This document shows positions 5,851 to 51,302 of a stretch of 64,000 bases of DNA, piece after piece. Position numbers and translations under genes: made by a program. Numbering within the stretch: position 1 is the first letter of the stretch; each line of letters opens with the position of its first letter. The stretch comes from an uncultured Chlamydiales bacterium (GTDB taxonomy: Bacteria > Chlamydiota > Chlamydiia > Chlamydiales > JAAKFR01), in NCBI GenBank assembly GCA_963699155.1, contig OY969414.1, positions 1,483,757 through 1,547,756 on the forward strand, read 5' to 3'. The notes under the pieces are model-generated. The model was given only the letters and a program-made list of their open reading frames with translations. It was not told the origin of the DNA and made no database searches.

Positions 5851-6012
5851 AATCGCCTCTTGGTGTGCCCTTCAGGGCACACCCTGCTGTGGGGAAAAAG
5901 GAAAAAATCAAAAGAAGGAAGTCTATTAACGCCTAGCATAGCAAACCACCTTCTTTTGATTTTTTCCTTTTCCCCCACAGCATTTTGAGCTTCGCTCAAA
6001 AAAGAGGCGATT
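5851..6012. repeat. Four-way-junction palindromic element A, preceded by CACAGAG-type repeats (5817-5850)
   Basis: Outer stem AATCGCCTCTT/AAGAGGCGATT; hairpin GGTGTGCCC-TTCA-GGGCACACC; ~34-bp stem 5885-5918/5949-5982; hairpin TTTTGAGC-TTC-GCTCAAAA. Confidence 0.85.
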
Positions 6013-6022
6013 TTTTTTCTTC

Positions 6023-6220
6023 CTACGTCTTCCTCATTTGATCGATTATTACACCCATGCGACCGTGAGCCTCGACTATGTCGCGAACTGCTAATTGAAA
6101 GACTCTCATTTCATTCGCTTCATAACTTTCTTCCAAGCATGCATTTAAATAGGCAGTTGCATACTCAGGGTCTTTAAGTTTCTCTATTAAATCCTCTTTG
6201 TAATCTCTATATGTTCTCAT
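6023..6220 (-). pseudogene. Truncated addiction-module antidote (HI1420-like), lacking the C-terminal HTH
   Basis: LKDPEYATAYLNACLEE...FQLAVRDIVEAHG is the typical N-terminal half; ORF ends at element A. Confidence 0.65.
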
Positions 6221-6341
6221 GTTTCTTATAGTAACCGAGAAGCCACATTTGGGTTAGCATTTTCATTTGCCTTAGCAAAGCTTGCGCAAGAGTCCTATTC
6301 ACAGGCAGGAATTTGTAAGCACCGCTTTTAGCGCGCCCTTC

Positions 6342-6481
6342 GAGGCTGTGAAAAAATCGATCAATTAGGTCCGTCGCTGAGACACTCGGCTGCTGGCGCA
6401 GCCTCGGTCTCAGGCGCGGGTGGGGGCACCGAAGGTCGCTCGCGGCCCTCAATGGGCCGCTGCCACTCCCAACGGTGCCAA
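6342..6481. repeat. Composite dispersed GC-rich repeat (modules X, Y, Z)
   Basis: X recurs at 29557-29604. Y recurs inverted at 6875-6932. Z recurs inverted at 7439-7494 and 15451-15506. Confidence 0.85.
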
Positions 6482-6509
6482 TTGCTGAGCAGCTATCCTC
6501 AACAACCCT

Positions 6510-6830
6510 ATTCAGGAATCTTCTCTTCCATGTGCAAAGCCTCGTCTGAGATGCTCCAGAAGGACTCAGATAGAAATAAGATGGTCAGCTTTAGATGATC
6601 TTCTCCCAGTGACCACAAAGCACTTTTTGTTGGGGTTTTGTAGGACAACTCATAATCTTGGCACTGATTTAGGTAACCTAAAGTCAGCAAAGGCAAAGCA
6701 GGTCATCCAGCGACAAATCCAAAAGCTAGGATAATGAAGATGGCTTGTGGAGGATTAATACTGCCTATAACGTGCAATTTGCCACAGAGATCACAAGTTG
6801 AGTGATTACAGGAGTCTATGTGAATAACTA
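6510..6830 (+). pseudogene. Degraded IS1182-family-like transposase N-terminal remnant
   Basis: Frameshifted fragments in the expected order: KPRLR...QIEIRWSALDDLLP, DHKA, GKAGHPATNPK, HKLSDYR. Confidence 0.55.
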
Positions 6831-48345: not shown

Positions 48346-49415
48346 AGCAAGAGATCAAAATTCCTTCCATGGGAGAGTCAGTCAGTGAAGCGACGATCGG
48401 TGTGATCCTCAAGCCCTCAGGCTCCTCGGTCAAAGAAAATGATGAAATCGTTGAGCTGGAAACTGAAAAGGTGAACCAGCTTCTCTATGCTCCCTTTTCA
48501 GGAGTGATCAACTGGAGTGTCAAAGAGGGAGATACCGTTAAAATCGGCGACACGATCGGCACCATCGACAGCGAAGCGAAAGAAAAAGCCCCACCACAGG
48601 CTCAGCCACCACCACCTGCACCCACACCTGGCCCCAGCCAACGCGTCATGAAGGAGCAGTTTGTTCAAGAACTCAAAAAACCTGCGCCTGCTACCAAAAA
48701 AGCTCCAGAAGCAGGCACCAACCGAAAAAAGATGTCGAAAATCCGGCAGACCATTGCCGCTCGTCTCGTTGACTCTCTCCATTCCGCTGCCATGCTGACC
48801 ACCTTTAACGAAGTCGATATGTCCCAGATCGTCCAGCTGCGCGAAAAATACCGCGATAGCTTTCAGGAGAAACATGGCGTCAAGCTCGGTTTCATGTCTT
48901 TCTTTGTGAAGGCAGTGGTCGATGGACTCAAAAAATACCCCGATTTTAACTCCTACATTGAAGGCGATGAAATTGTGACACGCAGCACTTATGACATTGG
49001 CATCGCAGTCGGTACTGAACGGGGGCTTGTCGTTCCGGTAGTGCGGGAGTGCGACAAGTTAACTTTTCCCCAAATTGAGCAGGCGATCGCTGCTTTTGCA
49101 AAAAAGGCGCGGGAGGGGAAGATCACCATCCCCGATTTAGAGGGGGGAGGCTTTACAATTACTAACGGAGGCGTCTATGGGTCACTGCTCTCCACACCCA
49201 TTCTCAATCCACCTCAGGTGGGGATTTTGGGAATGCATAAGATCGAAAAGCGTCCTGTCGTTGTCGATGATGCGATCGTCATCCGCCCCATGATGTATCT
49301 TGCCCTGAGCTATGACCACCGCTTGGTCGACGGGAAGGAAGCGGTCACCTTCCTGGTCCATGTGAAAGAGGTTTTAGAAGATCCCGCCCGTTTAATGTTT
49401 TTTGCCGATGTTTGA
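48342..49415 (+). CDS. sucB: Dihydrolipoamide succinyltransferase E2
   Basis: Lipoyl domain (ELETEKV), [29 protein letters not shown]. Confidence 0.96.
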
Positions 49416-50772
49416 TCTCGCAGTCATTGGATCTGGTCCAGGAGGCTATGTCGCAGCGATCCGCGCGGCGCAAGCAGGCATGCGGGTGGTCTGCATCGAA
49501 AAGGAGAAAACCTTCGGAGGGAGCTGTCTCAATGTGGGCTGCATTCCTTCGAAAGCCCTTCTCCACTCCACCGAATATTACTACAGAGTCGCTCACGAAG
49601 GGAAAGCACATGGGATCGAGGCGGAGAATCTGAAGGTCAATCTCACCCAAATGATGGAGAGAAAGAGCAAAGTAGTTGCAGGGCTTACCAGCGGTGTTGC
49701 CTATCTGTTCAAAAAGAATCAGGTTGAAACACTCTTTGGTGAGGCGGAGCTTGTGAGCCCTCAACAGATCCGTGTCGGAGAGAAAGTCGTGGAGGCCAAG
49801 TCGATCCTTTTGGCAACCGGCTCGGAGCCGATCCCTCTCCCATTTTTGCCATTTGATGAGAAAAAAATCCTCTCATCGACAGGTGCGCTTGCCTTAACCA
49901 CAATTCCTAAAAAGATGGTGATCATCGGTGCAGGAATTATTGGTCTCGAGCTAGGGTCAGTCTATCGACGAATCGGCAGCGAAATTACAGTCGTCGAGCT
50001 GCTCGACAGGGTAACCCCCACTCTCGATCGCGAACTCTCTCAAGGGATCCAGAAGATTCTCCAGAAGCAGGGCTTCACCTTTCATCTACAAACCAAGCTC
50101 ACTGCGGGCCGCATCGAAAACGATCAGGTCATTCTTTCACTCGAAAATCAACCAGAGCTCACCGCCGATCTCGTTCTTATTGCCATTGGGAGACGCCCCT
50201 ACTCAAAAAATCTGGGCTTAGAAAAAGTGGGCATCCGCCAAGAGAAGGGGAGAGTGGTCATCGACGATCAATTCCGCACCTCCATTCCCAATATTTATGC
50301 GATCGGCGATCTCGTCGACGGACCCATGCTAGCCCATAAAGCTTCAGAAGAGGGTGTGGCCGTTGCAGACCTCTTAGCGGGTAATAGCGTCCGCGTCAAC
50401 TATCTCGCCATTCCCAATGTCATGTACACTTGGCCCGAAGTCGCCTCTGTCGGCATGACAGAAGAGGAGGCCGCAGCCGCCAACCTCCTCTTCCTCGTCG
50501 GCAAATTTCCCTTCAAAGCCAATGCAAGGGCTCGCTGTAGCGGTGATGAGGAGGGCTTTGTCAAAATCCTCGCCGAGAAAGAGTCTCAACGAATCATTGG
50601 CCTCCACATCATCGGCCCCAACGCCTCCGAGATGATCCACGAAGGCGTCCTCGCCATCGATCAAAAGCTCACCCTTCACGCCCTCGCCCACGCCACCCAT
50701 GCCCACCCCACCTGCTCCGAAGCCATCAAAGAGGCAGCCATGGCCGCCTTCTCCAAGCCCCTCCATATTTAA
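49408..50772 (+). CDS. lpdA: Dihydrolipoamide dehydrogenase E3
   Basis: [35 protein letters not shown]. Confidence 0.96.
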
Positions 50773-50843
50773 TTGTAATTAGTGTAAAATTTGAAAAAAT
50801 AAAATTTCTTCGAGAACAAACAGGATAAATGTCACTTCACACT

Positions 50844-51012
50844 ATGCCAAATAAACAGGTAGACAATGAACTATCTGGCCAAATTATTGGAGCGGCATCA
50901 AGCGCAGTTGCTTACCTATTTACGTCTTACTGGGATACAGCTTGGATTGCTGATTAATTTTGGGAAGAGAGATGTAAAAGATGGGATTTTTCGTTTAATC
51001 AACAATGGCTAA
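50844..51012 (+). pseudogene. Internally deleted GxxExxY gene
   Basis: MPNKQVDNELSGQIIGAA (N-terminus) joined out of frame to HQAQLLTYLRLTGIQLGLLINFG...DGIFRLINNG* (C-terminus). Confidence 0.85.
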
Positions 51013-51036
51013 GTACTGAGTGTGGCATAGTTGTGA

Positions 51037-51302
51037 GGGTATCTTCAACACAGAGACGCAGAGACTCAGAGGCTCACAGAGAAAATCGCCTCTTTGAGCA
51101 AAGCTCAAAGCACCAGAAGGGAAAAGCCATTAAAGAAAAAGGGGTCTTCAATACGACTGTCATGATCACCCCTTTTTCTTTAATGGCTTTTCTCTTCTGG
51201 TGTTTTTGGTGCATGCACCAAAAAAAGGCGATTTTTTTGCCTTCGAGCATGGGTCCCTCTCTGTGAGCCTCTGTGTCTCTGCGTCTCTGTGTTGAGATGC
51301 CC
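51037..51302. repeat. Four-way-junction element D (51082-51235) inside inverted CACAGAG-repeat arms
   Basis: Arms CAACACAGAGACGCAGAGAC.CAGAGGCTCACAGAG and its reverse complement; outer AAAATCGCCT/AGGCGATTTT; two small hairpins and a ~36-bp stem. Confidence 0.88.

Follow-up and report, generated by a model that had tools for sequence, protein, structure and literature searches.

The window described herein is a stretch of 64,000 nt from an uncultured Chlamydiales bacterium (contig OY969414.1 of assembly GCA_963699155.1), the genome of which, denoted G000, is complete as a single contig of 2,399,326 bp with 47.5 % G+C. Within it lie four elements, A to D, that an initial annotation, made from the sequence alone, had singled out as sharing a four-way-junction architecture. 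A and D adjoin arrays of CACAGAG-type words and B and C adjoin ATCCTG/CAGGAT modules, in keeping with that annotation; remnants of genes for GxxExxY proteins (PDDEXK_3, PF13366) accompany C and D (Table 1). What it had missed is that each element is a dispersed repeat with further copies, set within larger units of mobile type. A to D are real copies of a non-coding repeat dispersed in environmental chlamydiae, and the kind is apparently undescribed.

Fold of the four elements

Each element was folded to its minimum free energy (MFE) structure and compared with 200 dinucleotide shuffles. In all four a closing stem encloses a long hairpin with a short one on either side, as annotated, and for none was any of the 200 shuffles as stable. 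The energies are −97.3 kcal/mol for A (5845–6015; z=−14.75), −65.3 kcal/mol for B (6995–7125; z=−7.28), −90.7 kcal/mol for C (30212–30365; z=−15.75) and −96.9 kcal/mol for D (51075–51242; z=−15.12). With both RNA and DNA parameters, and on both strands, the four-way junction is also the MFE structure of all 27 elements considered herein, which comprise 17 copies of families A to D from G000 and ten copies of a fifth family, E, from G006, a relative belonging to another genus of the same family.

Units measure 113–162 nt, with a closing stem of 9–11 bp and an A/T-rich central hairpin of 28–36 bp, and the junction is tight, leaving one or two unpaired bases in the window elements, none to two in most G000 copies and none to six overall. 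Some finer points of the annotation require adjustment. Long stems of some 30–36 bp had been described for all four elements, and that of B spans about 28 bp with mismatches (30 nt, 83 %); likewise, a purine-rich 5′ arm is found in A and D (purine fraction about 0.7–0.8), whereas B and C fall at 0.52–0.62. The short hairpins are family-specific and mostly carry loops of 3 nt, namely GAA, AAA, GTA, GCA or the complement of one of these. The sequence GCGAAGC is present in several, and mini-hairpins of the d(GCGAAGC) type are unusually stable in DNA.

The closing stem AATCGCCT/AGGCGATT is common to A and D, as is a TTTGAGC hairpin in opposite order, both features having been read correctly at the outset. 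When A is reverse-complemented it aligns with D frame for frame (the frame being the closing stem and short hairpins), and by this comparison of sequence the two frames are homologous to each other. Those of B and C are probably homologous as well, such that the window would hold two frame superfamilies rather than four unrelated elements. A- and T-runs flank the closing stems of A and D, both of which end in runs of T7–T8, and no T-run follows the closing stem of B or C.

Copies, relatives and maintenance of pairing

Using blast, 17 copies of the four families were located in G000 at 74–97 % identity, with fragments besides, and the junction fold was found in every one. When the same genome was scanned from hairpin seeds, 22 four-way candidates emerged; 16 of them correspond to known copies, and the remaining copy, B5, was found by blast only. 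The six further candidates were set aside as unlike the known copies on inspection, with one of them overlapping a tRNA-like stretch.

A covariance model, R1, built from the five copies of family B alone and run on the window with filters off, gave full-length matches to B (130.7 bits), C (49.2 bits), D (39.1 bits) and A (28.3 bits), the next full-length match in the 64 kb having an E-value of 0.27. A partial match of 22.5 bits at 17236–17290 corresponds to a hairpin whose 25-bp stem is perfect and whose loop measures 5 nt, situated between two open reading frames (ORFs). R1 matches 27/27 elements, and the class is defined by its architecture, not by its sequence, in keeping with the structure-defined family first proposed. 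Elsewhere in the window, 28645–28810 forms a nested imperfect palindrome at the 5′ end of a 711-aa ORF, with 44-nt arms that are 84 % complementary, an inner 28-nt pair and a match to R1 of 7.6 bits.

With regard to other genomes, R1 detected at least one site amongst 60 relatives, in G006 (51.4 bits). This element, of 145 nt, has ACTGCGTTT/AAACGCAGT as its closing stem, within which a long hairpin of 33 bp is preceded by a hairpin of 4 bp and followed by one of 7 bp. It shows no sequence likeness to A–D and founds family E, of which G006 contains at least ten distinct copies (from CAGGAT-anchored fetches, one letter-identical locus being counted once), many of them at contig ends. As the first filter of the whole-genome search is weak, and missed A, C and D even in G000, the count of one amongst 60 is a floor. 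The survey of other genomes was, moreover, anchored on CAGGAT modules and hence biased towards type-II elements. Relatives within the genus are distant, sharing only 64–70 % identity with G000 in coding DNA. Loci adjoining shared flank modules in G002 and G003 contain no junction of the A–D kind, and an exact octamer-array pattern search of five relatives yielded only two sites and no type-I junction.

Pairing is maintained as the sequences diverge. Changes on both sides of a pair, assessed against 500 shuffles each, affect six pairs amongst the five copies of family B (a number reached by 2/500 shuffles), two pairs amongst the six copies of family D (15/500) and five pairs, in six cells, amongst the ten copies of family E (0/500, with slid controls all at 0). 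In family B all six changed pairs belong to the long stem, the frame being almost invariant; the unpaired cells of this family are inflated, as MAFFT places B5 partly out of register. A cross-family MAFFT alignment was structurally wrong and was not used. The two copies of A are 80 % identical and both are fully paired. Further copies, for which the annotation had suggested searching, and compensatory changes are both present.

Other features point to DNA as the level at which the fold operates. Per copy there are 45–69 Watson–Crick pairs as opposed to 0–5 G–U pairs, which constitute about 2–3 % of pairs, and fold energies are similar on both strands; summed over copies, G–U pairs number 25 on the frame strand and 17 on the other. 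The long hairpin has its loop reverse-complemented with respect to the frame in 1/4 copies of C, 4/6 of D (relative to D1) and 5/10 of E, and since the central loop flips between copies, the arms exchange or invert as DNA. Forms with a closing stem and a single hairpin occur in G000 at 1636396, 2062675 and about 2185500–2185630. The last shares a truncated GxxExxY pseudogene with copy C4, and copy C3, at the intact gene, has the full junction; due to this, that locus at least is most simply a deletion derivative.

These properties bear upon the non-coding RNA suggested initially, and in particular upon a cis-acting RNA retained by the host, in which a junction at mRNA 3′ ends would act as a terminator, a 3′-end protector or an RNase III site. 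We consider this unlikely. Most of the 17 copies do face at least one gene 3′ end, with one lying between divergent ORFs (on a crude ORF call), a C-type junction overlaps the stop codon of an intact gene, A- and T-runs flank A and D, family B has a G–U skew that is taken up below, and repeats of the REP and ERIC types have been reported as active in transcripts (PMC3733652, in part). Set against this are the near-absence of G–U pairs, the equal folding of both strands, the flipping of loop orientation and the lack of a T-run after B and C. In A and D the T-run follows a stem enclosing about 140 nt, unlike a single-stem intrinsic terminator, and a scan for intrinsic terminators marks only the apex of the long stem of B, so that the elements are not simple bidirectional terminators. 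Nor do they match a known RNA: at gathering score, Rfam returns only two unrelated matches in the whole window (a tRNA and a signal recognition particle RNA), and in E-value mode nothing is added beyond miRNA-precursor-like matches below threshold, all to the long hairpins, with RF01687 not amongst them. Gene context is compatible with terminator-like side effects, without proving them.

Flanking arrays, GxxExxY genes and larger units

All 17 copies in G000 directly adjoin an array, which is of CACAGAG-type octamers in 8/8 copies of A and D and a CAGGAT module in 9/9 copies of B and C. Genome-wide, G000 contains 99 arrays of at least three octamers and 37 inverted pairs thereof, as opposed to none in a shuffled genome. 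Between the members of most inverted pairs lies a core of 20 nt, and one pair brackets an intact GxxExxY gene. A tandem array of at least nine copies of a 50-bp unit with octamer words also lies beside an octamer palindrome (G000:C1:520330-520780).

Table 1. Positions of the junction elements and their flanking features within the window
Feature	Position	Strand	Remarks
Octamer array of CACAGAG type, directly left of A	5817..5850	+	sequence reading
Element A, four-way junction	5851..6012	.	family A, 2 genome copies
Degenerate inverted CAGGAT-like module, left of B	6955..7001	+	sequence reading
Element B, four-way junction	7002..7118	.	family B, 5 copies; frame conserved, long hairpin variable
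CAGGAT module, directly right of B	7119..7167	+	three ATCCTG words with short GC hairpins between; end TGTTAAATTACCC
Inverted CAGGAT module, left arm of C unit	29968..30049	-	sequence reading
GxxExxY (PDDEXK_3) pseudogene with internal deletion; frame enters element C	30052..30249	+	profile match
Element C, four-way junction	30219..30358	.	family C, 4 copies
CAGGAT module, right arm of C unit	30359..30444	+	sequence reading
C-terminal fragment of GxxExxY gene, upstream of D	50866..51012	+	profile match
Octamer array (ACNCAGAG units), left arm around D	51045..51082	+	inverted-repeat pairing
Element D, four-way junction	51082..51235	.	family D, 6 copies
Inverted octamer array, right arm around D	51258..51295	-	38 nt, 97 % complementary to 51045-51082

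Element D forms part of a unit of 392–396 bp that possesses 22-bp terminal inverted repeats starting GTAAG (in four full copies). Two of these four are bordered by perfect 8-bp target duplications, CCGTTTTG and GAAAAGGG, and the other two adjoin a later insertion. All occurrences of the terminal repeat within G000 are either at D units or solitary, and its GTAAG ends with 8-bp duplications are reminiscent of the IS66 family. A type I toxin (a small hydrophobic peptide encoded by D) was considered and rejected: frame and stop vary between copies, and the loop with the start codon is inverted. A retron of msr/msd type was considered as well and not favoured. In the C unit, a GxxExxY gene and a junction overlapping its stop codon are enclosed by a pair of inverted CAGGAT modules, each of 82 bp; the gene is intact, with 137 aa, solely in the copy at G000 1919xxx.

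Insertion sequences have entered or approached several of these units. Copies B4 and B5 form an inverted pair with their CAGGAT modules, split exactly by a 1416-bp IS3-type element (G000:C1:470945-472361) that has at least 12 other copies in G000. A 1259-bp insertion sequence, present in 11 near-identical copies with duplications of about 14 bp, one of them at 54481–55745 of the window, has landed three times 10–15 bp from a D-unit terminal repeat. Neither the 1259-bp sequence near D nor the 1416-bp one near B is a source of the elements, as their ends are unrelated and they are later insertions.

Additional modules occupy the spacers around A and B. The stretch at 7172–7249 is a module of about 78 nt, comprising a small hairpin and a GCGCCACTGGCGC hairpin that resembles a terminator and has A- and T-runs; of this module G000 has about eight near-full and about 14 partial copies, and G001 and G002 at least 12 each at 76–90 % identity, as compared with only 64–70 % in coding DNA there. 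A GC-rich CTGAGACC...GGTCTCAG hairpin module is present at 6360–6450 and 6860–6930, inverted on either side of the A–B spacer, and also left of copy B3. On the minus strand, 6023–6220 encodes a 65-aa ORF, convergent with the gene upstream of A, that by its look may be an antitoxin or a small protein of helix-turn-helix type.

The PDDEXK_3 domain occurs at seven places in G000, two of them intact, at 1919509–1919922 and 2249373–2249747, and five beside C- or D-type units. Four intact GxxExxY genes in G003 and one in G006 likewise lie between inverted arrays of octamers or inverted CAGGAT modules, and the family is present in 54/200 Chlamydiota genomes. An inverted-repeat score of at least 18 within 200 nt on each side was taken to denote arms around these genes; flanks of sufficient length were available at 30 of the 34 loci examined, and 20/30 possess such arms (mostly CACAGAG-type arrays), as opposed to 0/56 offset controls. 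At four loci (L176, L177, L180 and L186) the octamer arrays lie 13–63 nt from the GxxExxY start codon. There, the farthest upstream ATG causes the array to be translated as a TTEHTENTE-like N-terminal extension of the ORF, which is probably not real.

The pattern of the CAGGAT module was found at 94 places in a species-genome collection. The 80 loci listed comprise 63 with a chlamydial label, nine labelled ‘uncultured bacterium’, three from one Verrucomicrobia-labelled metagenome-assembled genome (MAG) and five from other phyla. Usually the modules are perfect inverted doublets between ordinary genes, and a GxxExxY gene was seen beside them at only 1/80 listed loci, amongst the 150 longest of 487 ORF fragments.

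Little or no variation is seen at the GxxExxY, D and ExK residues amongst 26 GxxExxY protein sequences. A sequence search found no solved relative, and a model of the protein (predicted local distance difference test score, pLDDT, 94.3) has a PD-(D/E)XK fold, best matched by a restriction-enzyme nuclease domain (Z=8.3), followed by Cas4 (7.9) and Hjc (6.5). PDDEXK_3 function is listed as ‘Unknown’ in PMC3424549 (in part). In an alternative interpretation, the folded strand or cruciform would be a dedicated substrate for recombination or cleavage, and an enzyme specific for its structure, for instance the GxxExxY nuclease, would recognise it in an attC- or REP-like mechanism. The scarcity of unpaired junction bases, the predicted fold with its Hjc match, and the adjacency of every copy to arms that also bracket GxxExxY genes are all consistent with this, as is the retention of short hairpins within a family whilst the long hairpin varies, which is also seen in REPINs (PMC3116915, in part). 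It is nonetheless a doubtful proposition, given that GxxExxY cassettes in other genomes have arms with no junction module between gene and arm, that the fold matches are generic for the superfamily, and that the three tyrosine recombinase genes are far from every copy.

The mosaic surroundings likewise invite the notion that the four-way shape is unconstrained, being made of accidental nested palindromes left behind as repeat-rich spacers underwent successive insertion, deletion and template switching. Many repeat modules are pieced together in these spacers, insertion sequences have entered them or come to lie next to them, and one-hairpin derivatives exist. In addition, two inverted CAGGAT modules with hairpins of their own fold as a four-way junction at L062 (371–530) and L074 (450–580), in other chlamydial MAGs, an arrangement that possibly represents a route by which junctions arise. 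As a full account, accident is very improbable: five sequence families in two genera agree in order, in arm sizes and in having a tight junction, one model finds all four window families and only them in 64 kb, and the short hairpins differ between families yet all stay hairpins.

Comparison with known systems and interpretation

Of the affinities first suggested, that to repetitive extragenic palindromic (REP) sequences proved the best analogy. Both systems consist of dispersed extragenic palindromes and hairpin-forming inverted doublets (REPINs) with mosaic clustering, as in bacterial interspersed mosaic elements (BIMEs) (PMC3116915 and PMC3733652, both in part). In REPINs, too, conserved short hairpins flank a variable spacer with pairing kept by compensatory changes, and an alternative ‘clover’ fold has been proposed for them (PMC3116915, in part). 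REPtrons, in which a transposase gene is bracketed by repeats, provide a parallel to the cassettes found here, which have the same repeats on either side of a lone nuclease gene (PMC3733652, in part). The chlamydial elements differ in that the four-way junction is their most stable fold rather than an alternative one, in their length of 113–162 nt with a 28–36 bp central hairpin, and in that the gene bracketed encodes a PD-(D/E)XK GxxExxY protein, without a REP-associated tyrosine transposase (RAYT). Inspection of the 17 copies, made without a formal scan, revealed no conserved GTAG/CGTC tag at the stem ends.

Miniature inverted-repeat transposable elements (MITEs), examples being Correia/NEMIS, ERIC/IRU, RUP and Rickettsia RPE, are similarly multi-copy, non-coding, intergenic and strongly folding, and the D shell adds terminal inverted repeats and target duplications to this likeness. 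Unlike them, the junction module has no detectable target duplication, G000 has no parent insertion sequence, and the same architecture recurs with unrelated sequences. The attC-like reading fared less well. Integron attC sites are defined by extrahelical bases and R/L boxes. The chlamydial elements resemble them in being structure-defined, length-variable and situated beside small genes, including nuclease or toxin–antitoxin-like ORFs, but the copies are scattered singly with near-perfect stems, no cassette array is present, and the only three tyrosine recombinase genes in G000 are tens of kb or more from all 17 copies. Searches of the full-text literature found no description of these elements or of a link to GxxExxY.

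We therefore favour, with a probability of roughly 60 %, an interpretation of the elements as REPIN-, BIME- or MITE-like structured DNA repeats, selfish or mosaic in nature and without RAYT, and not as RNA genes. The initial interpretation is supported in its structure-defined and REP-like parts and unsupported in its non-coding RNA and attC-like parts. The junction modules form the centre of, or lie beside, inverted arrays of short words (CACAGAG-type octamers or CAGGAT modules), and the arrays in turn are the arms of GxxExxY-nuclease gene cassettes and of many gene-less hairpin doublets. According to this scheme, the modules would spread and reshuffle as DNA, their fold acting on single-stranded or extruded DNA and not in a strand-specific RNA. 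The fold would presumably be needed for propagation, some enzyme would move the modules, and a terminator or insulator effect, as suggested by the T7–T8 runs of A and D, may be a side product.

Several observations weigh against this interpretation. No autonomous partner was found, in that the complete G000 genome has no match to Y1 HUH/RAYT (PF01797), for which control genomes were matched, and no IS66 transposase. Target duplications are limited to the D shell, in 2/4 copies, and none, nor any terminal repeats, were seen in the flanks of the A, B and C junction modules themselves. Beyond G000, most CAGGAT doublets are without a junction: a clear one exists at only 3/80 listed CAGGAT loci, and within about 400 nt of only 7/20 of the first-fetched CAGGAT sites in G006. 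A–D sequence families are nearly absent from 40 relatives, and the spread of the architecture across genomes is poorly known owing to the weak first filter of the R1 search. Family B, alone in being skewed, has 11 G–U pairs on the frame strand and two on the other, which is a weak hint of strand-specific constraint. Finally, the two-sided stem changes could stem from arm-to-arm exchange without selection, such conversion being conceivable because the loop flips show the arms interacting. Arm conversion cannot easily explain, however, the hairpins of 4–9 bp that differ between families and are hairpins in all.

The favoured interpretation, of structured DNA repeats without RAYT, may be extended into a more specific scenario, which we offer tentatively and regard as unlikely. 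It would entail a RAYT-independent, REPIN-like mobile system in chlamydiae, with master copies that encode a small GxxExxY PD-(D/E)XK nuclease flanked by inverted word arrays, and with the junction modules as structured cores that, as folded single strands or cruciforms, are recognised, cut or copied. Were a nuclease or a host junction enzyme to recognise the folded DNA core, this would explain how the architecture persists while the sequence turns over. If the favoured interpretation is correct, the elements constitute a new structural type of bacterial interspersed repeat, in which a long variable arm forms part of a perfect four-way junction. This type would stand apart from the proteobacterial REP/RAYT paradigm, in a phylum for which no such repeat family was found described. 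The same interpretation would tie the widespread PDDEXK_3/GxxExxY nuclease family to specific repeat arms and thereby give it a testable role. In practical terms, the elements are markers of variable spacers, interrupt assemblies and may be taken for genes of non-coding RNAs.

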